This document shows positions 4,818-52,843 of a stretch of 64,000 bases of DNA, piece by piece (within the stretch, counting starts at the first letter, position 1; each line of letters starts with the position of its first letter). A model generated the notes under the pieces. The model saw only the letters and a program-made list of their open reading frames with translations. It ran no database searches and had not been told where the DNA came from. The stretch spans positions 41,099 through 105,098 of the forward strand of contig JAFZXZ010000032.1 of the NCBI GenBank assembly GCA_017616555.1. Direction: 5' to 3'. Source of the stretch: a bacterium (GTDB lineage Bacteria > Auribacterota > UBA3054). The translations under genes were made by a program, and so were the position numbers.

Positions 4818-4894
4818 GGGCTTATAGCTCAGTTGGTTAGAGCGCGCGCTTGATAAGCGCGAGGTCGTTAGTTCAAGTCTAACTAGGCCCACCA
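4818..4894 (+). tRNA. tRNA-Ile (anticodon GAT)
   Basis: Cloverleaf readable by eye. Acceptor gggctta pairs with taggccc. D-arm agctcagttggttagagc. Anticodon stem cgcgc/gcgcg with loop ttGATaa. T-arm ggttcaagtc-like. The 3' CCA is encoded. Confidence 0.93.
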
Positions 4895-4934
4895 TCTTTC
4901 ACAGACCATAATTGCCGGGCGCAAACCTTCGAGT

Positions 4935-5010
4935 GGGGAATTAACTCAGCTGGTAGAGTGCCTGCTTTGCAAGCAGGATGTCACCGGTTCGAGTCCGGTA
5001 TTCTCCACCA
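4935..5010 (+). tRNA. tRNA-Ala (anticodon TGC)
   Basis: Acceptor ggggaat pairs with attctcc and includes the G3:U70 alanine identity pair. Anticodon stem cctgc/gcagg with loop ttTGCaa. T-arm ccggttcgagtccgg. The 3' CCA is encoded. Confidence 0.93.
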
Positions 5011-5074: not shown

Positions 5075-6256
5075 ATGAAAAAAAGCATGTTAGTGGCCGC
5101 TCTTCTCATCGCGGTCGCCGCAAGCAGCGTAATGGCCGGATGGCAGCCTGTCCAGTTCACTTACGGTAACGACACGGTGTTCTACTATGTCAGCACCAAA
5201 GTTGGTCAGGACTGCTTCACGCTCTACAAGGACAACAATTCCTATAGAGTCTATGTCACTTTGCAGGGCGTCGGTTATGAGGAATTCAAACAATCCGTCG
5301 TCAAATGGAGCGCCGGTTCCAAACCGTCCACTGATACTGAGCTCGGTTATGGCTCCATGACCGCCTGCACTTTGACTGAAGGCTCGATGTTCGACGCCAA
5401 CGGAAACGTCAAGTTCGAAATGTACCTTGCTGATCGTTTCGCCGGAAGAAATCCGAAACTGTCCGTCGTTGTTATGCCTCATCCTACCGTGAATGCTCAC
5501 AACGGTGGTTCCCCCAGCGTGACCGTGACTTCTGCGAACTGCGACGTGTCCGGCGTCAAAGTGGTTTATTCTCCGCGCCCTGTTGATGCGAGCGGTTCTC
5601 AGCTTGCCCCGAACGGCACCGTGGTGGTGACCACCGGCACGGTTGATACTCCCTATTACTTTGGACCGAATTTCGGCCACCTTGGAACGATCGATGTCAT
5701 GGGCGGCCTCTTCGGTGACTGCAAGATCCGCGGAAACTGCGGCACTCTTCTAGCCCAGGCCCGCAAGTGCACGATCAAGCCGGGCGGCGCCAAGCAGAAA
5801 GTTCTTCAGGGCGGTTCCCTCGGCGACAGCCAGATTTTTATCGGCGGCAAGATTGGAACCATTTCCGCCCGCAACGGCCTAGTCGGCGCCGGTGGCAAAG
5901 AAGCCAAGAAGCGCATCGTCTCCGGTTATGCTGACAATGCAAATCCAAAATTTTATAGCTCTGCCGCTAACATCGGCCAAGTTGTAGTTAAGCGCGGCTG
6001 GGAAAAACCCTGCGTGGTGGCCGGCAGCGAAAGCGCTGGCAACTTTGACTCCACCGCTCCGACTTTCTACAATGGCTCCATCAAGCTGTTCCGTGTCAAC
6101 AATAAGGGAGACGGAACTTGCAGCGGTCAGACCGGCGCCGTCTTCACGAGCGACTTGCCGCCCCGTGTCACCGGCAAGATGAAATCTTCTGTCTCCGGAA
6201 ATACGATCTATGTCCAAAAACGGGGCAAATGCGATCTTAATGATTTCGTAAAGTAA
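5075..6256 (+). CDS. Secreted hypothetical protein (Gly/Val/Thr-rich, several Cys)
   Basis: I moved the start to ATG 5075 (MKKSMLVAALLIAVAASSVMA signal peptide, RBS ggag upstream), because the listed start at 4958 overlaps tRNA-Ala. I recognise no family. Confidence 0.65.
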   Translation: MKKSMLVAALLIAVAASSVMAGWQPVQFTYGNDTVFYYVSTKVGQDCFTLYKDNNSYRVYVTLQGVGYEEFKQSVVKWSAGSKPSTDTELGYGSMTACTLTEGSMFDANGNVKFEMYLADRFAGRNPKLSVVVMPHPTVNAHNGGSPSVTVTSANCDVSGVKVVYSPRPVDASGSQLAPNGTVVVTTGTVDTPYYFGPNFGHLGTIDVMGGLFGDCKIRGNCGTLLAQARKCTIKPGGAKQKVLQGGSLGDSQIFIGGKIGTISARNGLVGAGGKEAKKRIVSGYADNANPKFYSSAANIGQVVVKRGWEKPCVVAGSESAGNFDSTAPTFYNGSIKLFRVNNKGDGTCSGQTGAVFTSDLPPRVTGKMKSSVSGNTIYVQKRGKCDLNDFVK

Positions 6257-6335: not shown

Positions 6336-7067
6336 ATGAAAGAAACGCTGAAAAAGCTTGTCGAACTTCAGGGGATCGATAGCGAGAAGCTCGATTTGAA
6401 GTATAAGAGACAAGAAGTGCTCAATAGCCTGGTGGCGGACAAGGAAGAATACAAGTCCTTGGAGCGTCGCGTGGCTGAAGAGAAACAGCGTCAGCAGAGC
6501 ATCAGGGAAGAAGGCCAGCGCCTTGTGCGCGAACAGGCTCAGTTGGAAGCTAGAGACAGTGAACTGAGAAAGAGGCTCGACATCGTCAGGAACACAGCAG
6601 AGAGTCAGGCAGTCGGCCGCGAGATCGTAGCCAACGAGAATAAGCTTCAGGAGCATTTCGAAAAAGTCGATCGCCAGCATTCCGATTTGGAAGAAAGCCT
6701 TCAGAGACTTGCTGCGTTGCAGTCCCAGTTTTTTACCAAAAGAGCGGAATTGGCAGATAAAATGCCCGGGATTAAGCAAACTTTGGCCGCTATGGACAAG
6801 GAGATCGAGAAAGTTGACGCTAAGCGCAAGTCCCTTTGTTCCGGGATACCGCAAGCCGTGATGCAGCAGTACACAGATCTTATCAGGACAAGGGCTCCTT
6901 ATATGGTCGTGGAAGTCCAGACTACGGGCGACGGCGACCACACCTGCTCCGGCTGCAACATCGGTCTGCCGCCTCAGGTGATAGGCGACATAATGAAAGG
7001 GGATCAGCTGGTCTGTTGCGAGAATTGCGGCCGGATCCTTTATCTGGCCGAAAAAGAGGAAAAATAA
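6336..7067 (+). CDS. Coiled-coil protein with a C-terminal C4 zinc ribbon (COG1579 / DUF164-like)
   Basis: Long heptad-rich coiled coil, then CSGCNIGLP...CCENCGRILY (CxxC...CxxC). This is the architecture of the COG1579 zinc-ribbon family. Confidence 0.7.
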   Translation: MKETLKKLVELQGIDSEKLDLKYKRQEVLNSLVADKEEYKSLERRVAEEKQRQQSIREEGQRLVREQAQLEARDSELRKRLDIVRNTAESQAVGREIVANENKLQEHFEKVDRQHSDLEESLQRLAALQSQFFTKRAELADKMPGIKQTLAAMDKEIEKVDAKRKSLCSGIPQAVMQQYTDLIRTRAPYMVVEVQTTGDGDHTCSGCNIGLPPQVIGDIMKGDQLVCCENCGRILYLAEKEEK

Positions 7068-7460: not shown

Positions 7461-8417
7461 ATGCTTAAGCGAATAATTACAATACTTTTTCTCCTCCTCT
7501 GCACGGTCGCCGTCTCGGCGGCCAACTACGACGAAAAAGCAGGGGAGTCCTTCAATTCCGGGCTTGCTTGCGTCAGAAGCAACGATTATCGCTCAGCCCT
7601 GCGTTTTTTTAGGCAGGCTACGCAGTTTGACGCAACATTTGCCGCAGCGTACCTGAACATCGGGTCATGCCATGAGCGACTCGGGGAATTCGACAAGGCC
7701 AAACCGTTTTACGAAAAAGCTTTGAAGCTTGAGGGCGACAACGCCAATTTCGCCTTCATTTATGCCGGCGCGCTTTTGCGCCACGGAAAGATTGGAGAGG
7801 GGAAAAAATATCTTGAAAGCGCTGTTTACGCCGACCCCGCCAATCCCGATTATGTTTACGAACTCGGCGTGACCTGCCTCGTGCTTACCCAGAAGGTGGA
7901 GGCCGCCAAATGCTTCAGAGCCGCCGTGGACGTCTCCACGAACTACAGCGCAGCCTGGTTTCGGCTGGGAGTGCTGGAACTTGAGGGCGGAAAAACCAAC
8001 GAGGCATTGAGGCTCCTGGAGAAGGTCGAGCTCGACTGCGACCTAGCGCCGCAAGCGTATCATCTGAAGAGCCGTTTGAGAAAAAAGCTTGGCGACCTTG
8101 AGAGAGCGGAGAGTGACGTAAGGATGGCTCTTAAACTTTCGAAGGGTTACGAAGAAGCCTATCTTACTTTGGCGCAAATTTTGCGCGAAGAAAAAAAATA
8201 TCGAGAAGCCTGTGAACTGCTTGAGCGCGTGGAGCTGAAAGCAAGTCGCAGCAACTGGTCTTTTATGCTCGCACGTCTCTATGAGGAGTGGGGTGACGAG
8301 AGACTTGCCGCCGGAGAAGAGGAAACGGCACGCACCCTTTACAGGCAAGGATTGCGCTTCCTCCCGGAAGATCCTTCATTACTCGCCAAAAGTGCGGCGC
8401 AGGGAGGCTCAAAGTGA
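7461..8417 (+). CDS. Secreted TPR-repeat protein
   Basis: I moved the start to ATG 7461 (MLKRIITILFLLLCTVAVSAA signal peptide), because the listed start at 7311 lies inside rnpB. It has multiple TPR-like A..Y/F..G......A...Y..AL repeats. Confidence 0.75.
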   Translation: MLKRIITILFLLLCTVAVSAANYDEKAGESFNSGLACVRSNDYRSALRFFRQATQFDATFAAAYLNIGSCHERLGEFDKAKPFYEKALKLEGDNANFAFIYAGALLRHGKIGEGKKYLESAVYADPANPDYVYELGVTCLVLTQKVEAAKCFRAAVDVSTNYSAAWFRLGVLELEGGKTNEALRLLEKVELDCDLAPQAYHLKSRLRKKLGDLERAESDVRMALKLSKGYEEAYLTLAQILREEKKYREACELLERVELKASRSNWSFMLARLYEEWGDERLAAGEEETARTLYRQGLRFLPEDPSLLAKSAAQGGSK

Positions 8418-8443: not shown

Positions 8444-8472
8444 TTGACAATAAAAGACGATTCAAGTAGAAT
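8444..8472 (+). promoter_or_regulatory. Near-consensus sigma-70 promoter for the pilus-like operon (TTGACA-17-TAGAAT)
   Basis: TTGACA at 8444-8449, an exact 17-nt spacer, and TAGAAT at 8467-8472. It sits about 100 nt upstream of the GTG start at 8573. Confidence 0.6.
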
Positions 8473-8572
8473 ATTCTCAAGTTTTATATGGCGGATTCTA
8501 ATCCTTTTCGCCATGTGAATTCGTACAAACCCTTCCCGGGAGACCGGGGCTAACTCAAAACGAAGGAAAACC

Positions 8573-10249
8573 GTGGCAGACAAAAAGGTTGTAAGTATTG
8601 ACCTAGGTCGCGAAGTAGTGAAATTCGCGTTTGCGCAGGTCAGTAAAGGCAGCGCCAAGCTCACCGGATGTCAGAGCGTTACTCTTGAAATCGCCCATGA
8701 CGCCGACGACAGCGCATGGCGCGCCGCTGTTTTGGAAGTGCTCAAGCAGCAGAAAGCTGCTGGTTCTCTGGACAAGAAATCCGAAATATACGTTACTCTT
8801 CCCAGCTCTCAGGTTCTTACCAGAGCCCTGAAAGTTCCCACTGCGGAACTGCAGACTCAGGTCGAGGAAGAGGCCAAGAAAAATCTGCCTCTGCCAATTG
8901 AGGAAGCCGAGTGGGGCTACAACGTTGTCGGCGAAGCCGGTGACCAGAGCCACATCTCCCTTTTGGCCGTGAAGACCACCGTCGTTGAAGAGATCAATTC
9001 GATTTTTGAGGAAGCCGGTCTTTCCCTTGCCGGCGCCACAAGCGGTGCCCTTAACCTGGCGAACCTCCTTATCGCTGAAGGCAAAGGCACTGTTGAGACT
9101 CCTACGGCCGTTCTTTCAATCGGTGCTTCTTCCACGAACCTCGTCATCGCCGAGGGAACGAAAGTTTGGATGCGTACCTTGCCGGTTTTCGGTTCCACTC
9201 TCGTTTCCGCTCTGACCTCCGGCGGCGCTTCTTTTGACGAAGCTCGCAAGACTCTTCTCGAACAGGTCGATCTCGGAAACGCCGAAGCCGAAAGCACCAA
9301 GGCCGTCGGTCAGGCTCTCTCCCGTCTCGTGATGGAGATCACCCGTTCGATCGTGAACTACCGCACGAGCCTTTCCGGCGAGAAACCGGCGCGTATTCTT
9401 CTGACGGGCGGTTACGCCAAGATCAAAGGCCTCGACGCTTATCTCCAGGACAAGCTTAAAACCGACGCCGCTTACCTTGAAGCCTTCACGGCCTTTGAAG
9501 GCGAGAGCGGCGACTCCTTCGCTTTTGCGGAAACCTTGGGCGCTCTGATCGCTGTTGCCGGAAAGAGCCCCTACAGCGTAAACCTCGTTCCCGCCAATCT
9601 GCAGTGGCAGCGTTCCTTCGACGGCAAGAAGCCCCTTATCATCGCTGCTGTCGCTTTGCTGGCGGTGCTTTTCGGCGCGCTCTTCTTCCTCAACCAGGGC
9701 AAGATCAGCAAAGAGTCCGAACAGGCTGCAACGGCTCAGCAGACCCTCGAGGAAGCTCAGAAATATGACAAGGCCATCAAGCAGGTCCAGAAAGACATCC
9801 AGACTCAGCTGGCCGAGAACGAAGTTTACGGCCGCCTGCTCTGGGAAAGAGAAGCTTACGTTTATACGATCTCGCAGTTGGCTGCCAAGATGCCGACCAA
9901 CATGTGGCTCTATGGTGTCAGAAGCTTCACTCTGGGCGACATCTCTGAAGAGAACGCTTTGAGCAGCAACGCCAGCGACGTCCTTGTCATCAACAATGAC
10001 GAAGACGCCAAGACGCTGGTCAGGATCGGCATTGACTGCGGTTACTACGGCAACTGGGCCGAGGCTATGGGCGACATTCAGAAGCTCGTGGCCGAGACCG
10101 TCGGCAACGCCGGTTTCAAAGTCGGCCGCGATCTCCCCTGGCTCAAGTACACTGAACTGCAGATGGTGGTCGACCTTGACTGGAACAACAATGACAAGGA
10201 CGACTTCTCCGAGTATAAAGAAAAATTCAGCCTCAAATCCGGCCGTTAA
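8573..10249 (+). CDS. PilM-like actin-fold pilus assembly protein fused to a TM + PilN-like C-terminal region (Amuc_1101-like)
   Basis: GTG start with RBS aaggaaaa. PilM/FtsA-like blocks: VVSIDLGREVVKFA, LSIGASSTNLVIAEG, ILLTGGYAKIKGLDAYLQDKL. Then a TM helix (KPLIIAAVALLAVLFGALFFL), a coiled coil and a C-terminal domain. Confidence 0.75.
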   Translation: MADKKVVSIDLGREVVKFAFAQVSKGSAKLTGCQSVTLEIAHDADDSAWRAAVLEVLKQQKAAGSLDKKSEIYVTLPSSQVLTRALKVPTAELQTQVEEEAKKNLPLPIEEAEWGYNVVGEAGDQSHISLLAVKTTVVEEINSIFEEAGLSLAGATSGALNLANLLIAEGKGTVETPTAVLSIGASSTNLVIAEGTKVWMRTLPVFGSTLVSALTSGGASFDEARKTLLEQVDLGNAEAESTKAVGQALSRLVMEITRSIVNYRTSLSGEKPARILLTGGYAKIKGLDAYLQDKLKTDAAYLEAFTAFEGESGDSFAFAETLGALIAVAGKSPYSVNLVPANLQWQRSFDGKKPLIIAAVALLAVLFGALFFLNQGKISKESEQAATAQQTLEEAQKYDKAIKQVQKDIQTQLAENEVYGRLLWEREAYVYTISQLAAKMPTNMWLYGVRSFTLGDISEENALSSNASDVLVINNDEDAKTLVRIGIDCGYYGNWAEAMGDIQKLVAETVGNAGFKVGRDLPWLKYTELQMVVDLDWNNNDKDDFSEYKEKFSLKSGR

Positions 10250-10269
10250 CAGATGTCAAGGATAGAGCA

Positions 10270-11109
10270 ATGAAATTTGATTTACAGAAAAACAAATTGT
10301 TCCTCGTAACTCTGGGCATCGTGGTAGTCATCGTCGTGGTGACTCTCGTGCTCTGGCGCGGATCGGTCAACAAACTGAACGAAGCCTCCGCCGATTATGA
10401 AACCGCGAACAGCGATTACGAAACGCTGTGCAAGAATTACAACGGCGCGCCCTGCGAGGCTCTGCAGAAGGCTTATGAGGCCGACCTCGAAGCCCTGAAG
10501 AAACAGGCCACGGATTTTGTCGAGGCCGTCAAGACCGAAAAGCTCAACGTTCTCGACCCCTCCAACTTCAAGATCGAGCTTCGCAAATACGACAACCAGA
10601 TAAAGGAAGAGCGCGAAAAACGCAACATCAACATTTACCCCGGCGAGGGTTTCTCGGAATTCTTGGGCGATGTGGTCGCCAAGGAAGCCGATATGCCTAA
10701 GCTCTCCGCCCAGTTCCAGACAGTGAAAGACGTCCTCGGCGTGCTTCTTGACAACGACGTTCTGGAAGTCGTTTCCATCGAAAGAAACCAGGGCGACCAG
10801 ATGAGCGATTATGACGAGGAGGAGGAGGAATCCTTCGGCGGCGCCAGCGCCAAGAAGGACGAAAAGGTCGCCAAGTACGAAGGCATCCCCGTTTACTTCC
10901 AGTTCGCCATTCGTCCGGACAAGATTTACGACGTTCTTTCCCAGCTGCGCGACAAGCCCTTCTTCTATATAGTAAGAAGCATAAGGACCGACCTTCAGCC
11001 CGATCCGGTGGGAACGGTGGAAGATCCTTCCGATATCTTAGAGCGCGTTACGGTCGATATGACCGTGGAAATGATCAAGATCAACAAGCCCGCTGAGGCC
11101 GCTAAATAA
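10270..11109 (+). CDS. Membrane-anchored coiled-coil pilus-system protein, Amuc_1100-like architecture
   Basis: N-terminal TM anchor, coiled coil, acidic linker (DYDEEEEESFGG), and a C-terminal domain (IPVYFQFAIRPDKIYDVLSQL..FFYIVRSIRTD..VTVDMTVEMIKINKP). The order and positions resemble Amuc_1100 as I recall it. The position between the PilM-like gene and the secretins also matches. Confidence 0.5.
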   Translation: MKFDLQKNKLFLVTLGIVVVIVVVTLVLWRGSVNKLNEASADYETANSDYETLCKNYNGAPCEALQKAYEADLEALKKQATDFVEAVKTEKLNVLDPSNFKIELRKYDNQIKEEREKRNINIYPGEGFSEFLGDVVAKEADMPKLSAQFQTVKDVLGVLLDNDVLEVVSIERNQGDQMSDYDEEEEESFGGASAKKDEKVAKYEGIPVYFQFAIRPDKIYDVLSQLRDKPFFYIVRSIRTDLQPDPVGTVEDPSDILERVTVDMTVEMIKINKPAEAAK

Positions 11110-11129
11110 ATCAAGAGGATTAGTAGATA

Positions 11130-12113
11130 ATGAAAGCTTTAAATGAACATTGGGAAAAATTGCTTTTCGTAGTGATCCTTCTGATCGTTTTGGTAGTGGT
11201 AGGCAAGGCCTTCACAAGCCAGAACGACGTTGACAGTTTTGAAGCCCGCGGCGAAGCCAAGGACGTCAAGGAAAGCGCTTTGGTCGGCATTCCTGGTTTG
11301 GTCGAGATCGTCAAGGCCTCCGCTCCCAAGCTGGTCAGGAACGTCTTTACACACGACTGGCTCCAGAGAAGCACGGCCAACCAGGCTGCCTTGACAAGAA
11401 AGTGGGGGATTACCTGCGACGAGACCGGGCAGATGATCACTTATCGTCCTGATGCCGACAACGACGGTATGCCCAACGAGTGGGAACAGAAATACGGCCT
11501 GGATTGGACGAATCCCGCCGACGCCGAGGAAGATCCTGACAAGGATTCCTTCACGAACCTCAAGGAATACCAACTCTCCCAGGAGCTCGGCATTGAAGTT
11601 CTCCCCAAGGATCCTGCGAGTCCCAACGTTGTGGCTCAGGACTGGCGCATCGGCAAGATCTATCATCCCGAACGCGACCTTCAGCTCGGCATGTTCACCA
11701 AAGGTTCTTCTTTGAAATTCAAATACAAGGGAAAGATCCTCCCCGCCGTCGAGCTTTCCGGCACTCAGATCGAGCCTGAAGAAGGCAAGATCTTCTATAT
11801 AGAGAAAGTGGAAGAAGTCAACGAAACTGACAAAAAAGGCAAAGAGAAATTCGTTGACTACAAAGTTACCCTCAAAGATGGCGAAACTGGCGAGATTTTC
11901 TTCTGCACCAAGAAAGACAAGAGCCTGGAATCCTTCGGCATCGTAGAGTTCGTCAGCAAGGACGACGCCAACAAGAAAGTCGTCTGCAAAGTCGGCGATG
12001 AAATAAGCCTTCCCATGATCCAAAAAGACGGGAAAGTGACCGTTATAGACGTTGAAAACAAGACTGTCACCGTCAATGCCAACGACATTGACTACACAGT
12101 GACCGCTGAATAA
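11130..12113 (+). CDS. Membrane-anchored pilus-system protein with a thrombospondin-type-3-like Ca-binding repeat (Amuc_1099-like position)
   Basis: N-terminal TM (LLFVVILLIVLVVVG). DADNDGMPNEWEQKYGLDWTNPADAEEDPDKDSFTNLKEY is a DxDxDG-type repeat. Lys-rich beta-like C-terminus. Confidence 0.5.
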   Translation: MKALNEHWEKLLFVVILLIVLVVVGKAFTSQNDVDSFEARGEAKDVKESALVGIPGLVEIVKASAPKLVRNVFTHDWLQRSTANQAALTRKWGITCDETGQMITYRPDADNDGMPNEWEQKYGLDWTNPADAEEDPDKDSFTNLKEYQLSQELGIEVLPKDPASPNVVAQDWRIGKIYHPERDLQLGMFTKGSSLKFKYKGKILPAVELSGTQIEPEEGKIFYIEKVEEVNETDKKGKEKFVDYKVTLKDGETGEIFFCTKKDKSLESFGIVEFVSKDDANKKVVCKVGDEISLPMIQKDGKVTVIDVENKTVTVNANDIDYTVTAE

Positions 12114-12154
12114 AATAAATAATCAAGATATAACAACTGATGGAGTTAACGAGC

Positions 12155-14719
12155 ATGAAAAACACAAAAGCCCTGACAGTAGTTGCAGTCTCCCTGGCTG
12201 CGATCCTGCTTCTGGCGCAGAACGTGATGGCTGAAGCTGCCGTAGACCAGGCCATGAGACAGACGGCTGCTCTTCGCGCCCAGGAACTGGCCCGCGAATT
12301 GCAGATCGAACGTCAGGAACAACGGCAGATGGCTGACCTTTTGTTCCAGCAGGCGCTTCCCCTAATCGAACAGGGTGAGTACCGCAAGGCTCACACGCTT
12401 CTGTCCGAAGCTCTGAGGCGTTGCCCGAACCACGTTGAATCTAACGTTAAGATCATCGAGGTCAACAGCGCGCTTTACGACTACTACACTTCCGTGGCTA
12501 ACGACAGGCTTCAGATGCGCGACTACGAATCCGCGATCAACTTCTATCGCCAGGCTCTCGAGCATAAGCAGGGCGATGAGGCGCTGAAGGGCATCAACAA
12601 GGCCCGCAAGCTTCTCGAGACCGCCGCCAGCCAGCAGCTCTCCAAGATCGTCAACACCGACCTCTCCGAAGAAGAACAGGTCTATCAGATGATCAAGCAG
12701 GCGGAAGAGAAAGTTGTCTACGGTCAGTACGAAGAAGCCAAGAGCATTCTGAAACAGGCTATCAAGCTTGAAAGCGAAGATCCCCGCCCCCGTCGTATGC
12801 TGAGGGACGTGATCGCCAAGCAGAACAAGCTTATCAAGAGCGATCAGGAACTTGAACGTTCCCAGATCATGCTCGAAGTGCTCCGCAAGATCTCTCCGGA
12901 AGCCGCCGAGGATACTGAGGAAGTCGGCAGCGAGTCCACCGACGCCCCGGGCGAAACCGCTCGCAAGGCTATGTGGGCTAAACTGATGAACAAGATTCCG
13001 GCCGTCAGCCTTGACAACAACACGGTCTCCGAAGCAGTCCAGTTCCTTATTGAAGAAGGCAACATCCCGATCGTTCTGGATGCCGCCGGCGTCAGCGACA
13101 AGATCTCCCTTGACGCTGAAGGTCCGACGATCCTGACCGTCATCGAATACATCTGCGACACCGCCAACCTGAATTACATCGTGACCGGTTCCGCCGTCAT
13201 CATCTCCAAAGGCGAAGGCCAGATGGAGACCAGGATCTGGACGGTTTCTCCCGGCGTCGTTTCTAAGGCCTCTGAAATAGAGACTGAGGACAGCAGCTCC
13301 GATGCTTTCGGCGGTATCTTTGACACCGACACCGGCAGCGACGAAGACTTCTCCGCCATGGAGACCGAACCCGAGCTGGTCCGCGCCCTGAAAGATTACA
13401 TCGGCGCCGAAGTCGAAGGCAGCTCGATTTTCCTGGAACCCGTTTCCGGAACCTTGGTGGCCCGCAACACCGTCAAGAACTTGGAACTCATCGACAGCTA
13501 CCTGAAGAACCTCGACGAAAGCGGCGATCAGGTGCAGGTCGAGATCCAGGCCCGCTTCGTTGAGATCAGCGATCAAGACCTCAACGAAATAAGCTTCGGC
13601 ATGAAGCTCAAGAGCCCCTGGAAAGTCATCAGCGCCCACAACAAGAACGGCAACGCCGTCGTGGCCAACCCGACCGACTTCACCGGCGCGCTCCGCCGCT
13701 ACTCCAAGGGTTCCCGCAGCAGCCGTTATGCCGATCGTCTCTCCTCCGTGATGAGCATGGTTGGTGTCGGCGCCATTGGCAAAAACCAGATCAATGACGA
13801 GGTCCTCGGTTTCTTCACCAATGCTCTGACCGATCCTGAAGTTGGTCTGATCTTCAACGCGATCGACAACAAGACCAACGCTGACGTTCTCTCCGCTCCT
13901 TCAGTTACCACCGTCAGCGGCCAGCCCAGGGTCACCATCAAGCAGATCACCGAGGTCATGTACCCCGAAGATTACACAGTCTATAAACCGGCTATTATTT
14001 ACAGCAACGCCCAGTCTTTCAGCCTGCTCAACCCGAGCTCGACTCCGGACGTCAGCGCTATGCCTGGTTACGCCACTGTTGAAAGCACTCTTAAAGAAGA
14101 TGTAGGTATCGAACTTCAGGTTTCCCCGATCGTCGCCGACGACAAGCGCACGGTCAGCATGGACATCACCTGCAAGACCTCTTCTGAAATCGAGCCGCGC
14201 GTTGTTTCCGTTTACGTCGGAAACTCGGCTCTCAATGTCGACCCCATTGAACTCGACATCCCGCGCTTCAAGTTCTCCGAAGTCAAGACACAGGTCGTAG
14301 TCGCTGACGGCGAGACCGTGGTCTTGGGCGGCATGGTCACCGAGACCCTCCGTCAGTACAAGGACAAAGTCCCCTTCCTGGGCGACCTCCCCTTGATCGG
14401 CCGTTTCTTCAGAGCTGAAGGCAGCTACAATGAGAAGAAGCATCTTCTGATATTCGTCAAGACCAACATCATTACTCCGACCGGCGAGCTCTATCGCGAC
14501 CGCGTCGCCAGCAAGCTGGCCTCCTCCCTCGAGCAGGAACGCGCCGACTATGAAGAAGGCGAACAGGTCACTGAAGCCGAAGAAGGTGAGGAAGAGAGCA
14601 GTGAGGTTGAAGATTCCACTGAATCCGAAGAAACCACAGAAGTAAGCGAAGCTTCCGAAGATGAGGAAGAGACCGAAGAAACTTCTGAGGACGAAGAAGA
14701 GGAATCCACTGAGGAATAA
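12155..14719 (+). CDS. Secretin family outer-membrane channel (GspD/PilQ-like) with a TPR-like N-terminus and a poly-acidic C-terminal tail
   Basis: I prefer ATG 12155 (RBS ggag 9 nt upstream; MKNTKALTVVAVSLAAILLLAQNVMA signal peptide); the alternative is ATG 12140. Secretin_N-like block VARNTVKNLELIDSYLKNLDE..VQVEIQARFVEIS. Secretin core VVLGGMVTE...KVPFLGDLPLIGRFFR...KKHLLIFVKTNII. The last 62 residues are almost all E/D/S/T. Confidence 0.88.
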   Translation: MKNTKALTVVAVSLAAILLLAQNVMAEAAVDQAMRQTAALRAQELARELQIERQEQRQMADLLFQQALPLIEQGEYRKAHTLLSEALRRCPNHVESNVKIIEVNSALYDYYTSVANDRLQMRDYESAINFYRQALEHKQGDEALKGINKARKLLETAASQQLSKIVNTDLSEEEQVYQMIKQAEEKVVYGQYEEAKSILKQAIKLESEDPRPRRMLRDVIAKQNKLIKSDQELERSQIMLEVLRKISPEAAEDTEEVGSESTDAPGETARKAMWAKLMNKIPAVSLDNNTVSEAVQFLIEEGNIPIVLDAAGVSDKISLDAEGPTILTVIEYICDTANLNYIVTGSAVIISKGEGQMETRIWTVSPGVVSKASEIETEDSSSDAFGGIFDTDTGSDEDFSAMETEPELVRALKDYIGAEVEGSSIFLEPVSGTLVARNTVKNLELIDSYLKNLDESGDQVQVEIQARFVEISDQDLNEISFGMKLKSPWKVISAHNKNGNAVVANPTDFTGALRRYSKGSRSSRYADRLSSVMSMVGVGAIGKNQINDEVLGFFTNALTDPEVGLIFNAIDNKTNADVLSAPSVTTVSGQPRVTIKQITEVMYPEDYTVYKPAIIYSNAQSFSLLNPSSTPDVSAMPGYATVESTLKEDVGIELQVSPIVADDKRTVSMDITCKTSSEIEPRVVSVYVGNSALNVDPIELDIPRFKFSEVKTQVVVADGETVVLGGMVTETLRQYKDKVPFLGDLPLIGRFFRAEGSYNEKKHLLIFVKTNIITPTGELYRDRVASKLASSLEQERADYEEGEQVTEAEEGEEESSEVEDSTESEETTEVSEASEDEEETEETSEDEEEESTEE

Positions 14720-14760
14720 CTTAAATGGCAATTAAAAAAGATATAGACTTTGGAGGTCTT

Positions 14761-17112
14761 ATGAACAAAAATATGCTGAAAATGAGCCTTATCATCGGGC
14801 TGGTCATGCTGGCGGTCTCTCCGCTTCTGGCTGCCGATGAGCAGACGTTTGAGCAGAAGGAACAGCAGCTCCTTAGCGCCGCTGAACCCGAAGTCCAGAC
14901 CGAAGCCAAGGCCGAGACCATCGAAATCCCCAAGGAAGTCGGTGAAGAAGACGGTTTTTGGACCAAAATCAAAAAAGCCTTCGCCACCAAAGAAGAAAAG
15001 CCCGACCTTGACAACAAGACCGAGCAGGAGATCCAGGTTCTGATGTTCGAAGGCCGCACTTACTATCGTAAGGGCGAATACCAGAAGGCTCTCAACACCT
15101 TCGCGGAAGTCACCAAGCGCGACCCCTACAATCCGCTGGCCCGCCGCTATATGAGCAGCTGCAACGAAAAGCTTCTCCGCATTGAAGAGGACAACGTTGA
15201 TCTGACCGCTCTCCAGCGCATCCAGGACGTCGAGAAGAGCATGCTGATCATGACTGAAAAGCAGAAAGACCGCGATGAAGCCGTCGCCAACGCCGGCATC
15301 TCCACCGTCACTGACGAGAAGATGAACCGCGTTATCAAACAGCTCAGCTTCGTTGATGAGCCGATGGCGAACGTTCTCGAAACCATCCGCGAAGAAGCGA
15401 ATCTGAACTTGGTCATGCAGCCGGCCGTTGCGAACGCTATTCAGAACGCCACTCTGACGCTCTCTTTGGATAACATCTCCGTGGCCGACGCTCTTGACAT
15501 GATCTGCAAACTCAGGAAACTGAACTACAGCGTGGACGGCGAGTCCATCACCATCACGACTCAGGATTCCGCCCGTATCATCAGCAAGACGTTCCGTCTG
15601 TCCCGCGGCCTCGATTCCATTGAAGTTTTGAACAAGGAATCTCTGCGCACCCCGACCGACAAGGCGAAGGAGCTGCTTCGGCGCATCGGCGTTACGGAAG
15701 TCAAGGATGCTTCCGTGGTGTATGATGCCAGAACCAACCAGCTCATCGTACGTAACACCGCCGAGAACCTTGCCCTGATCGAGAAGTTCCTCAAGAACTT
15801 CGACAAGACCCCGTCTCAGGTTGAGATCGAAGCCCGCTTCGTGACCGTCGCCAACGACGACATGAACGAGCTCGTTTTCCGTCATTTCCTGACTCACAAC
15901 TATCGTTGGAACCGCAAGGACAAATACGGCGACAAGTATTATCTTGAAGCCCCCAACAAAGAGCGCGAAATGACCTCCGGCCTCCGTTATATCCGCTCCT
16001 TCATGGATGAGGATGCTTACGATCCGGTGAACTCCGCTTACAGGCTCCCCTCCACGGTTGATACCGGCAGCGATTACGGCGACTATATGAGCGTTGCCAA
16101 TCTGCGCCCCAACCAACCGGCTTACGGATCTGCTACCATCGAGGACATACAGTCCATGTACTCCAGCCTTGAGCAGTCCACCGGCACAGCCAATGAGTAT
16201 AAGCGCAAAGCTCAGGCCTCCTATCAGGCCATGCAGAACTTCTATCGTCAGTATCAGAGCATCTTGGACGGCAGCAGCCCCAACAAGAGCTTCTATGTTG
16301 ATCAGCTTTCCAGCTTGAGGTCCAATTACGTGTCCAACGCCAAGAGCTATGTTGACGCTCTCGGCTCCATCGCTGGCAACCAGTCCAGCATCGCTAAAGC
16401 GAACGTTCAGGACACTGTCGCCAACGACGGCCTCGGCAAAGTTTTCGATATCAGCGGCGTTCTTGGCCCCGCCCAGTACCGCAGCGTGATCTACGCTCTT
16501 TCCAACCAGGAAGGCGTTGAGACGATCTTCGCCCCCAAGGTGACGGTCGTTTCCGGAAACCGCGCTGAATTGAAAGAAGTCATCAGAGTCCGTTACAACA
16601 AGACCATCGAAGAAGCTGAAGACCAGGACGTCGACGTTGGTGACGCTCAGTCCGTGATCTACGACTACGCCGTTACGCCGAAAGACTGGGAAACCAGAGA
16701 GTACGGCACGAAGCTGGTCGTGACCCCGTCTGTGCAGACTGACGAAAAGACGATCGAACTGGAAGTCAACCCCGAGGTCTCTGACCTTCTGGGCTTCCGT
16801 AGGTTCGTGTCTTCCCGTAACAACGTTTACGAACTGCCCCAGTTCTTCGTCCAGAACCTCAAGACGACCGTCTTGGTCAACGACGGCGACACGCTCGTCA
16901 TGGGCGGCCTCATGAAGAATGACGTGGTCCGCACCAAGGACCGCACGCCCATTCTGGCCGACCTCCCCTGGATCGGACGTTTCTGGCGCGGTGAATCCGA
17001 GGTTGCCAAGAAATCCAACCTCCTGATCTTCATCAACGCCAAGCTGGTCGATCCTAGCGGCACGCCGCGCCGCGGCGCCACCGTGAAGACGGCTCCCACT
17101 GCTTCCCGCTAA
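14761..17112 (+). CDS. Second secretin family outer-membrane channel (paralog of the upstream gene)
   Basis: I prefer ATG 14761 (RBS ggagg; MNKNMLKMSLIIGLVMLAVSPLLA signal peptide); the alternative is ATG 14725. The domain order matches the upstream gene: TPR-like, IVRNTAENLALIEKFLKNFDK..VEIEARFVTVA, then the core TLVMGGLMKN...RTPILADLPWIGRFWR...KSNLLIFINAKLV. Confidence 0.88.
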   Translation: MNKNMLKMSLIIGLVMLAVSPLLAADEQTFEQKEQQLLSAAEPEVQTEAKAETIEIPKEVGEEDGFWTKIKKAFATKEEKPDLDNKTEQEIQVLMFEGRTYYRKGEYQKALNTFAEVTKRDPYNPLARRYMSSCNEKLLRIEEDNVDLTALQRIQDVEKSMLIMTEKQKDRDEAVANAGISTVTDEKMNRVIKQLSFVDEPMANVLETIREEANLNLVMQPAVANAIQNATLTLSLDNISVADALDMICKLRKLNYSVDGESITITTQDSARIISKTFRLSRGLDSIEVLNKESLRTPTDKAKELLRRIGVTEVKDASVVYDARTNQLIVRNTAENLALIEKFLKNFDKTPSQVEIEARFVTVANDDMNELVFRHFLTHNYRWNRKDKYGDKYYLEAPNKEREMTSGLRYIRSFMDEDAYDPVNSAYRLPSTVDTGSDYGDYMSVANLRPNQPAYGSATIEDIQSMYSSLEQSTGTANEYKRKAQASYQAMQNFYRQYQSILDGSSPNKSFYVDQLSSLRSNYVSNAKSYVDALGSIAGNQSSIAKANVQDTVANDGLGKVFDISGVLGPAQYRSVIYALSNQEGVETIFAPKVTVVSGNRAELKEVIRVRYNKTIEEAEDQDVDVGDAQSVIYDYAVTPKDWETREYGTKLVVTPSVQTDEKTIELEVNPEVSDLLGFRRFVSSRNNVYELPQFFVQNLKTTVLVNDGDTLVMGGLMKNDVVRTKDRTPILADLPWIGRFWRGESEVAKKSNLLIFINAKLVDPSGTPRRGATVKTAPTASR

Positions 17113-17125
17113 TAGCGGAAGCGAC

Positions 17126-17158
17126 ATCGGGCCGCTCGCATGAGCGGCCCGATTTTTA
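17126..17158 (+). terminator. Rho-independent terminator ending the pilus-like operon
   Basis: A 12-bp stem, atcgggccgctc (17126-17137) with gagcggcccgat (17142-17153), has loop gcat and is followed by a T5 run. Confidence 0.85.
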
Positions 17159-17230: not shown

Positions 17231-18127
17231 ATGACTAAAACCCTGCTCGCCGTCGACGGCATGGCTTACGTTTTCCGCGCTTTTTACGCCGTTCCTTATA
17301 TGTGCAGCCATGCGGGAATACCAACGAACGCCGTTTACGGTTTCCATAAATTATTGCAAAGCCTTGTCAATGAGATAGAGCCTGATCATCTCGTGGTCGC
17401 TTTCGACGTTGCAGAACCGACTTTCCGCGACGAAGTCTTCAGCGACTACAAAGCAAATCGCCCTGAGGCTCCCGAAGAGCTTATTTCCCAGATCGATCTG
17501 GTCAAGGAATACCTCAGGGCCATGCGCATTCCTATCCTGGAATGCCCGGGATTCGAGGCGGACGATGTTCTGGCAACTGTAGCCGTGAAAGCCAAGGAAG
17601 CCGGTATTAAGGCTCTGATAGCGACAGGAGACAAAGACCTCTGCCAATTGGTGGACGACGACATATTCATTGTCAGGAGCAGCATGCGGGAAGTCGAGAT
17701 ATTGGACAGGGGCGGCGTTATGCGCCATTACGGCGTCTGGCCCGAACAGATCGTAGATTACCTCACCATCGTGGGGGATTCCGCGGACAATGTGCCAGGC
17801 GTCAAGGGCATTGGCCAGAAAGGTGCCAGGGACCTTCTTGAAGCCTACGGCACACTTGACAATATCTACGCTTCCCTTGACAAGCTTTCCCTTTCCAACC
17901 AGAGAAAACTGGAGGAAGCCAAGGACCATATCGAGAGCACCCGCTTCCTCATCAAGATCAGATGCGACGCGCCGGTTAAAATTGAACTTAAGGACACCAT
18001 GCGCTGCGAATGTGACTGCGGACTCGTGAATGAATTCTGCCGGAAATACGACTTCCAGTCCCTGCGCGCGCCGGAAGCAAAAAAAGTCGAATCGCCAAAA
18101 GAACCGCAACAGCAGGAGCTTTTCTAA
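17231..18127 (+). CDS. Stand-alone 5'-3' exonuclease (Pol I N-terminal / flap endonuclease family)
   Basis: LLAVDGMAYVFRAFYA, FDVAEPTFRDEVFSDYKANR, GFEADDVLATVA, ATGDKDLCQLV and GDSADNVPGVKGIGQKGA (H3TH). There is no polymerase domain. Confidence 0.85.
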   Translation: MTKTLLAVDGMAYVFRAFYAVPYMCSHAGIPTNAVYGFHKLLQSLVNEIEPDHLVVAFDVAEPTFRDEVFSDYKANRPEAPEELISQIDLVKEYLRAMRIPILECPGFEADDVLATVAVKAKEAGIKALIATGDKDLCQLVDDDIFIVRSSMREVEILDRGGVMRHYGVWPEQIVDYLTIVGDSADNVPGVKGIGQKGARDLLEAYGTLDNIYASLDKLSLSNQRKLEEAKDHIESTRFLIKIRCDAPVKIELKDTMRCECDCGLVNEFCRKYDFQSLRAPEAKKVESPKEPQQQELF

Positions 18128-18720
18128 TGAAAAAAATAGGAATTACGGGCGGGATCGGCTGCGGCAAGAGTTTCGCCTTGGAAATAATAAAGGAAGCAGG
18201 ATATCAGGCCATTGACGCCGACGATCTTACCAGAGAACTCTGGCAGGACGAGAGCGTCGTAAAAAAGATTGGCTTGAAACTTCATGAATACGGATATTTG
18301 AAAGAAGAATTCACCGCCCAGGCGGTGAGAGCGGTGGCCAGGAATGCTTTCAAAGACATGCAGGTCATAAACGCGCTTGAACGGGTCTTGCAGCCCATGA
18401 TACTGGATAAGCTGACGCTTTGGATGAAAGAAAAGGAAAAAGAAGGGGAGAAGGTCGTTTTTGTGATCGTTCCTTTGCTTTTCGAGTGCGGTCTGCAGTA
18501 TCTATTCGACGAGACTGTCACCATAAACGCCGATAATGAAATAAGGGAACGCAGGCTGCAATTGTCACGGCCGCTTTCCGCCGCCGACATCAATTTGCGC
18601 TTCAACCGCCAGTGGGCCAACTGGGCCCGCTCGCATTATGCGAACCACACCATAGAGAACAACGGAACCAAGGAAGAATTCAAAGAGGCCATTAAAGCAT
18701 TCTTAAGAGAAAAATTATGA
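18127..18720 (+). CDS. coaE: Dephospho-CoA kinase
   Basis: P-loop IGITGGIGCGKS at the N-terminus and about 197 aa in length. The start overlaps the upstream stop (TAATG). Confidence 0.85.
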   Translation: MKKIGITGGIGCGKSFALEIIKEAGYQAIDADDLTRELWQDESVVKKIGLKLHEYGYLKEEFTAQAVRAVARNAFKDMQVINALERVLQPMILDKLTLWMKEKEKEGEKVVFVIVPLLFECGLQYLFDETVTINADNEIRERRLQLSRPLSAADINLRFNRQWANWARSHYANHTIENNGTKEEFKEAIKAFLREKL

Positions 18721-20519
18721 ACGGATATTACAAAGTATTGACCGGAGCCCCCGGACGCCCCAAACGCTACGCAACCAAAGAAGAGATCCCGAAAGAACTG
18801 ACGGACCAGTATGAAGTGGTCTTCGTCCCCGAGGATGTTAAGAAAAGCAAATGGGAGGAAGCTGTCAAAAAGCACCCCATAGAGTTCACGGAAGGCGAAC
18901 CAATCGTAGGAGAAAAGCCGGGCGACGAAATGGTCGAAAGGCCTGCCAAGAAAAAAAGAGGGCGCAAGCCGAAAGCGTTGAAGGTAGTGGAAGAAGTTCC
19001 TTTCAATCCTCTTGACCCCACTGCGGAATTTACCGAGGGCGAGACTATTGAGAACGAAACTCCCTCCGAGGTGACCGTCGGACGCCCTATCCCCATTGTT
19101 GAAGCCAAGGATCAGACTTACTCAAGGCGCCACGGACACCGCCACCCCAAAGGCAAGAAAGAAGAGGGCGAAGTTCAGGATCAGACTCAAGAACAAGCCG
19201 CCGAAAAAGAACCAGAAACTCCGGCTGAATGTACGCCCGACGACGTCAACGTTGAGAGCGATTTGGTCAACATAGCCTTTCTTCTGAGGCAGACCAATGA
19301 GGAATTGAGGAATTTGGCCGCGGCCAACGGAGTCCGCCGTATTCCGGAACTTAGGCGACAGGATCTTATCTACGAGATAATGCGCACGGAATACGCCAAA
19401 TTCGGCTTCCGTTTCGGAAAAGGCGTACTGGATATCCAGAAATTCAACAATTACGGTTTTTTGAGGCGCAGCGAGCGCAATTACCGCATCTGCGACGACG
19501 ACGTCTATGTTTCTCCCACCCAGATCAGGCGCTTCCATCTCCAGAGAGGCGACACCATCTACGGCGTTTTCAGAAGGCCGAGGAACAATGAGAAGAGCGG
19601 TGCTGTAATAAAGGTTGCCGCGGTGAATCTCGATACGCCCGATTCCAAAGCGAACAAAACGCCGTTTGACGAACTGACCCCGCAATTTTCCGCGGAACGC
19701 TTCCTCATGGAATACAGGCCTGACGGAGTCTCGACAAGGATCATGGACCTTATTTCACCGATCGGCAAAGGCCAGCGCGGGCTTATCGTCGCTCCGCCCA
19801 GAGCCGGAAAAACGCTTCTTCTTAGAGATATTGCCAATGCCATATCCAGCAACAACCCCAGCGCCGAACTCATCATGCTTCTTATAGACGAAAGGCCTGA
19901 GGAAGTGACCGACATGCAGCGCTCCGTCAAGGGAGAAGTCATAAGCTCGACCTTCGACGAATCGGGAGACCGTCATCTGGCGGTGGCCGAAATGGTGCTG
20001 GAAAAAGCCAAGCGCCTCGTTGAGCATGGCAAGGACGTCATCATTCTTCTGGACAGCCTGACGAGACTGGCCAGAGCTTACAACAGCGGCCACAATCTGA
20101 GCGGCAAGACGCTTTCCGGCGGCATGGACGCCAACGCCCTGCAGAAGCCCAAACGCTTCTTCGGCTCGGCCAGAAGCTGCGAAGGCGGCGGAAGCCTGAC
20201 GATCATCGCCACGGCGCTCATAGAGACCGGCAGCCGTATGGACGACCTCATCTACGAGGAGTTCAAAGGCACAGGAAACATGGAGTGCGTCCTGGACCGC
20301 CGCATCAGCGAAAAGCGCGTTTTCCCGGCCATCGACATCGACCGTTCCGGCACGAGGAAGGAAGAACTGCTCTTCGACGCCGAGGAGCTTAAGAAAGTCT
20401 GGCTCCTGCGCAATATGCTCTCCGGCCTTTCTCCGCTCCAGAAGATCGAACGCCTTATAGACCAGGTCAAGCTCACTTCCTCCAACGCGGAACTCTTAAT
20501 GATGCTCAGGGAGCGCTGA
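18717..20519 (+). CDS. rho: Transcription termination factor Rho with a ~180-aa N-terminal extension
   Basis: Rho core: GFLRR.. (CSD-like RNA-binding domain), Walker [50 protein letters not shown]. The ATGA start overlaps the coaE stop. Confidence 0.92.
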
Positions 20520-26539: not shown

Positions 26540-27856
26540 TTATTTTTCCTTGGGTCGATTGTCGATTACGCGGGCTGCTTTGCCGGTGAAGCGCTCGATG
26601 CTTTGCGGCTGGACCAGGTCCACTTCGAAGTGGATGCCGGTATAGGAGCGGATGGTCTCCTCCAGCCTGTTTTTAAGCATCTGCATCTCGCTCATCTTGT
26701 CGGAGAAGAAGGCCGGGGCCATCTCCACTTTCACGACCGAGCGGTCGAGGGAGCCGGGGCGGTCCAATACGATGAGGAAGTTCGGCGTGACGTCTTTGCA
26801 CTGCAGAAGCGCTTCTTCCACCTGGCTGGGGAAGACGTTGACGCCTCTTATTATCAGCATGTCGTCGGAACGGCCTTTAATTCTGCTCATCCTCTTGGTC
26901 GTTCTGCCGCAGGGGCAGTCAGTGTCGCTGATAAGGTAGGCCAGGTCTCTGGTGCGGTACCTTATCATAGGCATGGCTTCCTTGTTGAGGGCGGTGATGA
27001 CCAGCTCTCCCAGCTGTCCGTCCGGAACGGGCTCCAGCGTTTCGGGATCCAGGCATTCCACCAGGAAGTAATCCTCCTGGATGTGCATGCCGGTGTGATA
27101 GACGCACTCTCCGCTGATGCCAGGCCCCAGGACTTCCGAGAGACCGTAGTTGTTGCAGGTGTTGACCTGGAGCTTATCCTCGATGTAGAGGCGCATGTCT
27201 TCGGTCCAGGGTTCGCTGCCAAGGAAGGCCACTTTCAGATTCAAGCTTTCCCTTGGGATCTTCTCCTCTTCCATGTACTCGATCAAGCGCAGTGCGTAGG
27301 TCGGAGTGCAGACCAAAAGCTCCGGCTGAAGGTCCTGCAGGAGCGTGAACTGGCGCCTGGTGTTGCCGCTGGCGGCGGGGATGATGGAGGAGCCGATCTT
27401 CTCAAGGCCGTAGTGCAATCCGAAGCCGCCGGTGAAGAGGCCGTAGCCGAAACTGATCTGGGCGGTGTTGCCGGGGCGGGCGCCGCCAGCGTACAAAAAG
27501 CGGGCCACAAGGTCGGACCACATCTCAAGGTCGTTTTTCGTGTAGGCGACGAAGGTCGGTTTGCCCGTCGTGCCAGAGGAGCCGTGGAAACGCAAAACCT
27601 TTTCCTTGGGCACAGCCAGCAGTCCCAGGGGATAGTTGTTGCGCATGTCGGTCTTGGTCGTGAAGGGCAGATGCCTTACGTCGGCTACGCTCTTTATGTC
27701 CTCAGGCCCTATGCCGATCTCCTTGAACTTCTTTGCGTAGAAGGGGACGTTCATCACCTGCTTGACAGTCGCTCTCAGTCTCTGGACCTGAATGTTCTCG
27801 ATCTCGTCTCTGGATAAGCATTCCGCCTTATCCCAAATCTTGTTTTCCAGTTTCAT
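26540..27856 (-). CDS. Phenylacetate-CoA ligase family protein (PaaK / coenzyme F390 synthetase-like), copy 1
   Basis: Adenylate-forming motifs HGSSGTTGKPT, YGLFTGGFGLHYG, YGLSEVLGPG, YRTRD, DDMLIIRGVNVFPSQVE. Confidence 0.85.
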   Translation of the reverse strand: MKLENKIWDKAECLSRDEIENIQVQRLRATVKQVMNVPFYAKKFKEIGIGPEDIKSVADVRHLPFTTKTDMRNNYPLGLLAVPKEKVLRFHGSSGTTGKPTFVAYTKNDLEMWSDLVARFLYAGGARPGNTAQISFGYGLFTGGFGLHYGLEKIGSSIIPAASGNTRRQFTLLQDLQPELLVCTPTYALRLIEYMEEEKIPRESLNLKVAFLGSEPWTEDMRLYIEDKLQVNTCNNYGLSEVLGPGISGECVYHTGMHIQEDYFLVECLDPETLEPVPDGQLGELVITALNKEAMPMIRYRTRDLAYLISDTDCPCGRTTKRMSRIKGRSDDMLIIRGVNVFPSQVEEALLQCKDVTPNFLIVLDRPGSLDRSVVKVEMAPAFFSDKMSEMQMLKNRLEETIRSYTGIHFEVDLVQPQSIERFTGKAARVIDNRPKEK

Positions 27857-52837: not shown

Positions 52838-52843
52838 TTTGAA

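Follow-up and report, generated by a model that had tools for sequence, protein, structure and literature searches.

What kind of machine is encoded by a locus that ends in two adjacent secretin genes and holds no gene for an ATPase, a platform protein or a pilin? Here, we address this question for positions 8444-17158 of a 64-kb contig stretch from an uncultured rumen bacterium (hereafter, the window, to which all statements on genes absent from this host refer). The original prediction had described a single transcription unit for five proteins, pointed to a resemblance to the Amuc_1101-1100-1099-1098 locus of Akkermansia muciniphila, and proposed an undescribed secretin architecture without its own motor. 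Five co-oriented open reading frames (ORFs) are indeed found on the + strand at 8573-17112, exactly as had been predicted, and the resemblance is confirmed by profile searches. The proposal of a new architecture fares differently: the locus is a distant relative of the Akkermansia Amuc_1100 pilus-like cluster, a known kind of envelope machine. Probably, it represents the envelope-spanning part of a type IV filament machine that provides alignment and the outer-membrane channel, of the MUL2-type kind that was first recognised in Akkermansia and is specific to the Planctomycetota-Verrucomicrobiota-Chlamydiota (PVC) bacteria.

Few loci of Akkermansia, a gut bacterium of therapeutic importance, have been studied as much as the Amuc_1100 cluster, yet the cellular role of the machine is still unclear. 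In the literature, Amuc_1098-1102 are presented as a type IV pili-like cluster that encodes abundant proteins of the outer membrane, Amuc_1098 being the secretin. According to a recent report (PMC13174399), this cluster, now named MUL2, is required for mucin acquisition, a role known only genetically, includes the archaeal-pilin-like Amuc_1102 (Mul2A; PDB 7DSZ) and the PilM protein Amuc_1101 (Mul2B), and is syntenic with genes for a secretion channel, dephospho-CoA kinase and rho across Akkermansiaceae. A preprint (bioRxiv 10.64898/2025.12.30.696933) further describes MUL2 as devoid of an ATPase gene, with the remaining Akkermansia pilus genes located at other genome sites. Given that MUL2 has been described and that NCBI curates models for all five Amuc_1098-1102 proteins, a system of this kind is already known.

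All five proteins encoded in the window find their best NCBIfam match in an Amuc model, and the four models involved succeed one another in the same order as in Akkermansia. The first protein (8573-10249, + strand; 558 aa, with a GTG start) matches Amuc_1101_fam (E = 2e-58; score of 198.6 against a cut-off of 650); the second, a bitopic coiled-coil protein (10270-11109, + strand; 279 aa), matches Amuc_1100_fam over residues 5-239 (5e-20; 72.1 against 180); the third, likewise bitopic (11130-12113, + strand; 327 aa), matches Amuc_1099_fam over its full length (2e-5; 24.2 against 50); and the two secretins, paralog A (12155-14719, + strand; 854 aa) and paralog B (14761-17112, + strand; 783 aa), match Amuc_1098_fam (3e-71 and 6.5e-61; 240.8 and 206.4 against 750). 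The Pfam searches agree, with PilM_2 recognised in the first protein (73.5 bits, with the cut-off at 27) and Secretin in both channels (104 bits, along with TPRs, in A; 108 bits, along with Secretin_N, in B).

The first protein is most likely a PilM-PilN fusion, because it joins a PilM fold to a conserved PilN-type motif ahead of a transmembrane helix. In the AlphaFold2 model (mean predicted local distance difference test score, pLDDT, of 83), an actin-like, cytoplasmic PilM domain (residues 1-330) precedes the transmembrane helix, after which the chain forms a coiled coil of 55 residues (385-439) and, in the periplasm, an alpha/beta domain (444-535). The top Foldseek matches are to the Pseudomonas aeruginosa PilM:PilN(1-12) structure (5EOU, E = 3e-23) and to Thermus PilM-PilN (2YCH, TM-score of 0.80). 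The sequence between the PilM domain and the transmembrane helix reads SVNLVPANLQWQR and contains the motif NLVP at 337-340, in which N337 and P340 are kept across 17 homologues, down to 21% identity, with the consensus NLLP. Such an NLLP-type peptide is the signature N-terminus of PilN and binds PilM.

The second protein is annotated with PF28028 (Amuc_1100) in public gene calls, and its family profile matches the Amuc_1100 crystal structures 6LAD/6KNY at 4e-20 in a search of the PDB, where the single sequence returned noise only, so that the family profile is needed. A PilO/PilN-like fold has been reported for Amuc_1100 (bioRxiv 10.64898/2025.12.30.696933), and by analogy the protein in the window would be the counterpart of PilO (GspM). 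The third protein consists of an N-terminal transmembrane helix, a disordered linker and two small beta domains at 172-325 (AlphaFold2 mean pLDDT of 70, with the beta domains confident), and carries two TSP3-type calcium-binding repeats, DADNDG at 108-113 and DPDKDS at 135-140. The helix, both repeats, with their invariant D/N/E columns, and the beta-rich C-terminus are common to the homologues from Verrucomicrobiota and Kiritimatiellia, and homologues carry PF18884 (TSP3_bac). There is no lipobox in this protein, which has a transmembrane anchor instead. Judging by gene order alone, it may occupy the position of PilP/GspC. A PilP-like fold was also considered; this label was dropped, and the position kept, after a Foldseek search against the PDB yielded nothing below E = 0.03. 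As a side observation, the orthologues of loci L007, L016, L021 and L045-L047 contain a zinc-ribbon-like CxxC...CxxC (four cysteines) just ahead of the TSP3 repeats, and the window (11400-11440) and its close relatives retain one of these four cysteines.

A survey of gene neighbourhoods, for which one genome per species was scanned, yielded 49 loci. The synteny of PilM-fusion, Amuc_1100-like, Amuc_1099-like, secretin, coaE and rho genes holds in these 49 genomes of Verrucomicrobiota, Kiritimatiellia and the lineage of the window, and matches the published MUL2 synteny; in the window, a gene for a 5'-3' exonuclease separates the cluster from coaE (18127-18720) and rho (18717-20519). The window comes from an uncultured rumen lineage, and near-identical loci are present in metagenome-assembled genomes (MAGs) from goat, sheep, yak and buffalo and in 'bacterium UBP3_UBA3054'. 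In complete loci of this UBP3 type, the genes invariably follow the order zinc-ribbon protein, TPR protein, PilM-PilN fusion, Amuc_1100-like, Amuc_1099-like, secretin A, secretin B, 5'-3' exonuclease, coaE and rho, and the same order holds in genomes that are 36-42% identical in PilM, some of them labelled Chlamydiota. In Chthoniobacterales, Kiritimatiellia and Verrucomicrobiae, the PilM-PilN fusion is preceded by an Amuc_1102-like gene and followed by Amuc_1100, Amuc_1099, one secretin, coaE and rho, with the Amuc_1102-like gene detected by jackhmmer directly upstream of the fusion in 30 Verrucomicrobiota and Kiritimatiellia loci. One locus, L037 from Chthoniobacteraceae, scores above the curated cut-offs of all four Amuc models and hence bridges the window to Akkermansia.

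Thus, the locus shares with MUL2 the order of genes for the PilM fusion, the Amuc_1100-like protein, the Amuc_1099-like protein and a TPR-bearing secretin within one unit, the downstream coaE-rho pair and a cluster without ATPase or platform genes. It differs from MUL2 in having two secretins rather than one, in scores that fall far short of the equivalog cut-offs, in having a secreted TPR gene directly upstream in place of Amuc_1102 (Mul2A), and in its host, an uncultured rumen lineage that is labelled UBP3 or 'bacterium' and lies outside the named Verrucomicrobiota. The core of the cluster, including the coaE-rho neighbourhood, accordingly reaches past the named Verrucomicrobiota into a rumen lineage.

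That the five genes form one unit between a near-consensus promoter and a strong terminator, as had been noted from the sequence, is well supported, because both the promoter and the terminator stem are invariant while the neighbouring DNA has changed. The sigma-70-type promoter (8444-8472, + strand; TTGACA-17-TAGAAT) agrees with the consensus at 11 of 12 positions, and the intrinsic terminator (17126-17158, + strand) consists of a hairpin at 17126-17153, with a 12-bp stem that includes 9 G-C pairs and a loop of 4, followed by a T run. Consensus scans for such elements prove little by themselves; the weight rests on conservation in six relatives, in which both promoter hexamers and their spacing are unchanged next to diverged upstream DNA, and the terminator stem is invariant, with a variable loop, between diverged flanks. 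The genes are separated by 20, 20, 41 and 41 nucleotides (nt), and a sequence scan found no convincing + strand terminator inside the unit, including the 41-nt gap between the secretins. The starts of the two secretin genes, 12155 and 14761, were chosen from GGAG-type Shine-Dalgarno sequences (GGAGG ahead of the ATG of paralog B) and public gene calls; the longest ORFs would begin at 12140 (859 aa) and 14725 (795 aa). The 5' leader (8473-8572, + strand; 100 nt) is highly conserved and contains two hairpins, and its Shine-Dalgarno sequence, AAGGA, precedes the GTG start codon. In the alignment, its second hairpin is re-formed from different bases in L013/L015; the predicted fold (-29.5 kcal/mol, z = -1.7) is mildly better than those of shuffled sequences, and no match was found in Rfam. 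A second promoter-like sequence (TTGACT-17-TAAAAT at 12088-12116, 10/12) is located just 5' of the first secretin gene. This site is ambiguous and weaker than that at 8444-8472: its -10 element overlaps the preceding stop codon and is conserved, and its -35 element lies in coding DNA and is variable.

As judged from gene content and order, the locus would correspond to the pilMNOPQ operon of type IVa pili, and the core of the cluster is recognisable as a pilMNOPQ equivalent. With the type IVa systems of Pseudomonas aeruginosa, Myxococcus xanthus and Thermus thermophilus, it shares the PilM fold, the NLLP-type motif, a bitopic coiled-coil partner, a periplasmic linker protein and, after it, a secretin with N0, N1 and secretin domains (in both paralogs), as well as an operon set apart from the genes for ATPase, platform, pilin and peptidase. 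Unlike in those systems, PilM and PilN are fused, there are two secretins, the place of the lipoprotein PilP is taken by a transmembrane-anchored TSP3-repeat protein, and the N-termini of the secretins consist of TPRs, the AMIN domains of PilQ being absent. In the mechanism that we consider most plausible, the cytoplasmic PilM domain of the fusion, joined to a PilN part made up of the motif, transmembrane helix, coiled coil and periplasmic alpha/beta domain, would have the PilO-like Amuc_1100 homologue as its partner in the inner membrane; the Amuc_1099-like protein, anchored in the membrane and presumably binding calcium, would extend across the periplasm and reach the N0 domains of both secretins; and the secretins would serve as the outer-membrane gate. 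The ATPase, the platform and the prepilin-type subunits would be encoded elsewhere in the genome, as with pilMNOPQ and MUL2. The domain identities, the order of the genes, the borders of the operon and their conservation are shown by the present data, and these contacts and the remote location of the motor and pilin genes are proposed by analogy with the related systems. As for the cellular role, we infer from MUL2, by analogy, that it could be in a surface fibre, in glycan acquisition, or in both, in what would be a glycan-degrading rumen bacterium.

Several results weigh against this assignment. All five proteins score under the NCBIfam equivalog cut-offs, although an Amuc model is the top match in each case. 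Pfam searches at E values up to 10 gave no PilN match to the C-terminal part of the fusion; its conserved NLLP-type motif and its predicted topology do fit PilN. At the same threshold, there was no PilO match to the Amuc_1100-like protein and no match to the Amuc_1099-like protein, for which Foldseek also returned nothing significant, leaving its PilP-likeness unsupported. No Amuc_1102-like gene was detected by jackhmmer in any UBP3-type locus or in the window, nor was there an NCBIfam Amuc_1102_rel match upstream. The function of MUL2 itself is known only from genetics, as relayed in citing papers. Finally, a motif scan and family scans covering essentially all large ORFs revealed no gene for an ATPase, platform protein or prepilin of a type II secretion system (T2SS) or type IV pilus anywhere in the 64 kb.

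This last absence was at the heart of the original prediction of a secretin machine without its own motor; read in this way, the locus would be a self-contained trans-envelope structure, a passive conduit or a tether, that operates without a type IV filament ATPase or pilin. In addition to the missing motor genes, in the operon and in the 64 kb, this reading can invoke the loss from this place of the pilin-like Amuc_1102 gene of the Verrucomicrobiota relatives and a neighbourhood of conserved housekeeping genes (exonuclease, coaE and rho). In classical type IVa pilus organisms, however, the pilMNOPQ operon lies apart from pilA, pilB, pilC, pilD and pilT. Operons without motor genes are thus the rule for pilMNOPQ as well as for MUL2, and, because such operons normally contain no ATPase, platform or pilin genes, the data do not support the lack of a motor as something new, nor, with it, an architecture that is undescribed. 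A motif scan found no Walker A motif of the ATPase in any of the surveyed loci, nor in the window. Furthermore, PilM-, PilN- and PilO-type parts are known solely from ATPase-driven machines. The window itself does encode the prepilin peptidase that had been predicted in it (PilD/A24; 46487-47341, + strand; Pfam A24_N_bact with 112 bits and Peptidase_A24 with 57 bits), located among housekeeping genes (MutS, TilS and TsaD), which implies that the organism makes prepilin-type proteins; the enzyme is likely to be a partner of the locus acting in trans, in which case it would process the subunits. Prepilin genes also adjoin the cluster in relatives: in a Verrucomicrobia MAG (L035, UBA6056), the Amuc_1102-like gene and the PilM-fusion cluster are directly preceded by a Verru_Chthon prepilin cassette (TIGR02596 and TIGR02598; 5416-9219), and genuine prepilin leader motifs were detected by motif scan in the Verrucomicrobiota loci L035, L042 and L049 and in neither the window nor the UBP3-type loci. 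The peptidase in the window, the cassette in L035 and the Amuc_1102-like gene upstream in most relatives tie the module to parts of type IV filament systems, and we consider a motor-less structure improbable.

Alternatively, the module could serve a T2SS-like export of glycan-degrading enzymes rather than a surface pilus. Going by the model, the arrangement of an actin-like domain, a transmembrane helix and a periplasmic domain gives the fusion the overall topology of GspL; the third protein, at the GspC position, is anchored by a transmembrane helix, as GspC is, and is not a lipoprotein, as PilP is; secretin A aligns best with the C-termini of GspD; and a GH92 hydrolase and large secreted proteins are encoded just upstream. 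The specific signatures of a T2SS fail to appear, however: none of the three inner-membrane proteins matches a family of GspL, GspM or GspC, no gspE-K genes lie nearby, where the neighbours are housekeeping genes, the cytoplasmic domain of the fusion is closest to PilM in both fold and sequence, and secretin B is closest to the PilQ of a competence pilus. The homologous locus of Akkermansia is, in the literature, tied to mucin uptake and pilus-like proteins, not to secretion. An export function thus seems to us possible and rather unlikely. Nor does the locus match the Tad/Flp pilus: no Tad genes are present in the window, and RcpA is a weak match to the secretins in the PDB (8ODN, 1e-10 to 1e-11), behind PilQ and GspD.

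A distinctive feature of the locus is the pair of secretins. The duplication is real and conserved throughout the lineage, with both genes being present in every complete UBP3-type locus. Both proteins are composed of a signal peptide, an N-terminal TPR region, N0, N1 and the secretin domain, and are collinear at 24-30% identity, with strongly different middle regions and C-termini. Paralog A comprises TPRs at ~65-230, N0/N1, the secretin domain at 575-778, a C-terminal helix and an acidic tail; it matches Amuc_1098_fam in one collinear stretch (36-785), and its best PDB matches are the C-termini of GspD, including residues past the secretin domain. Paralog B has a short TPR region, a PilQ-like N0-N1 at ~199-392, an insertion of ~180 residues, the secretin domain at 591-776 and no tail; its best PDB match, which includes N0-N1, is the Vibrio cholerae competence PilQ (6W6M, 2e-27). 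The tail of A, encoded at ~14540-14716, amounts to 60-70 residues rich in Glu, Ser and Thr after a conserved helix, and is found, with varying length, in all orthologues of A and in none of B.

Such mixed affinities might suggest that the second secretin is extraneous to the system and belongs to a neighbouring, unrelated T2SS or type IV pilus set, considering that B is more PilQ-like in N0-N1 and A more GspD-like at the C-terminus. This scenario is extremely improbable: both proteins favour Amuc_1098_fam, by 20-40 orders of magnitude, over PilQ and GspD (1e-32 to 1e-39), both have TPRs at the N-terminus within the shared TPR-N0-N1-secretin layout, all five genes are enclosed by a single promoter and a single terminator, and the genes after B encode the 5'-3' exonuclease, CoaE and Rho.

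The pair also appears to be old. In a tree built from 778 columns, A and B each form a clade with 100% bootstrap support, and the Verrucomicrobiota side is supported at 96%; the mean identities (22.5% for A-B, 22.2% for A-Verrucomicrobiota and 23.5% for B-Verrucomicrobiota) make the three groups equidistant. When the tree was rooted on PilQ/GspD fragments taken from PDB alignments (136 usable columns), each alternative received ~30% support. The ratios of non-synonymous to synonymous substitution rates (dN/dS) are 0.04-0.09 for A and 0.07-0.10 for B, and no gene of the region is better conserved than the secretins, which have 93% and 90% amino-acid identity to those of L013 compared with 70% for the adjoining exonuclease. 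Both paralogs are thus under strong purifying selection, and neither is a decaying duplicate. In the same comparison with L013, synonymous divergence is ~0.56-1.08 in the five genes of the locus and ~2.1 in the exonuclease and coaE (17231-18720), so that the locus has roughly half the value of its flanks; the reduced synonymous divergence of the locus genes could stem from high expression, with strong codon bias, or from recombination. A second instance of two tandem secretins at the end of the cluster occurs in Chthoniobacter (L030, L043 and L049), where both proteins pass the Amuc_1098 cut-off. Being ~49% identical and nested inside the Chthoniobacterales, this pair reflects a younger, independent duplication. 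The Chthoniobacter loci resemble the one studied here in the two adjacent Amuc_1098-family secretins that close the same cluster, and differ in that the Amuc_1102-like gene is kept directly upstream and in that a phmmer search with the TPR protein of the window finds no match in them.

How might the two channels work together? One option is that A and B co-assemble into one mixed (hetero-oligomeric) or stacked channel, with both being obligate subunits. The genes are co-transcribed across a 41-nt gap that contains no terminator, and their adjacency and order never change within the lineage; purifying selection is equally strong on both proteins, which share the same domain order; and the independent tandem pair of Chthoniobacter suggests a recurring advantage of having two. 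The identity of A and B is, however, about 22-30%, their middle regions and C-termini are strongly different, and the literature searched contains no cellular hetero-oligomeric secretin, so that we give this option a minor share of our belief. Within the MUL2-type module that we favour, the secretins would be old paralogs with divided roles, both of them required. We weakly prefer two homo-oligomeric channels that are separate and dock on the same platform in the inner membrane, A being the orthodox Amuc_1098-like channel and B combining a PilQ-like N0-N1 with a lineage-specific insertion.

A bolder proposal, which we regard as doubtful, is that this is a MUL2-type machine rebuilt on an obligate secretin pair that diverged about as early as the split between the lineage and Verrucomicrobiota, with a mixed or dual portal, a dedicated periplasmic TPR helper and no Amuc_1102. 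If true, this rebuilt machine would be the first cellular two-secretin system, possibly with separate channels for a fibre or secretion and for glycan uptake. A literature search on tandem or mixed secretins returned nothing relevant, and, as far as the literature searched goes, the ancient co-transcribed secretin pair, the locus without Amuc_1102 and the conserved TPR neighbour, all in a lineage outside the named Verrucomicrobiota, are new. The locus shows that the pilin-like Amuc_1102 gene can be missing from such a cluster and that a secretin can be retained in two copies over a very long time. Current views of type IV filament systems stand; the variant amounts to a natural experiment on which parts are essential and on the role of the secretin, and raises the question of whether the channels are mixed or separate.

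Directly upstream of the unit, a separate transcription unit (7461-8417, + strand) encodes a secreted TPR protein with an N-terminal signal peptide and many Pfam TPR matches. The gene is found in the same place in all UBP3-type loci, including those that are ~38% identical (L007 and L016-L021), and a phmmer search against the Verrucomicrobiota loci gave no match. The suggestion that the protein acts as a PilF/PilW-type pilotin can be followed in part: the gene is real and conserved beside the locus in this lineage, and the role is speculative, given that the protein has no lipobox and that its TPR similarity is generic, with NCBIfam matches to PilW (70 bits) and Tgl that are below the cut-off and no better than those to MamA or PrsT. 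A correspondence of this gene, together with the extra secretin, to MUL1 of Akkermansia (Amuc_0543/0544) was also considered, and the literature searched yielded no usable description of MUL1. Two genes upstream of the unit in all UBP3-type genomes is a zinc-ribbon coiled-coil gene (6336-7067), for which the best NCBIfam match, CdsZ, is below the cut-off.

Elsewhere in the window, the segment 30-6256 comprises the gene for the GH92 glycoside hydrolase followed by those for large secreted proteins at 1961-4744 (927 aa) and 5075-6256 (393 aa), neither of which has a Pfam or NCBIfam match. Adjacent genes for tRNA-Ile(GAT) and tRNA-Ala(TGC) at 4818-5010 resemble an rRNA spacer, yet lie among protein genes without an rRNA neighbour. 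Beside a sodium:solute symporter gene, 26540-27856 and 28404-29717 encode AMP-binding ligases that are paralogs of each other and whose AMP-binding_C_2 domains are of the phenylacetate-CoA ligase type. Finally, 51155-55024 and 57142-58665 include genes for an XPB-type helicase (560 aa) and, beside it, a 726-aa partner that shares the Helicase_C_3 domain only, with a sigma-54 gene near.

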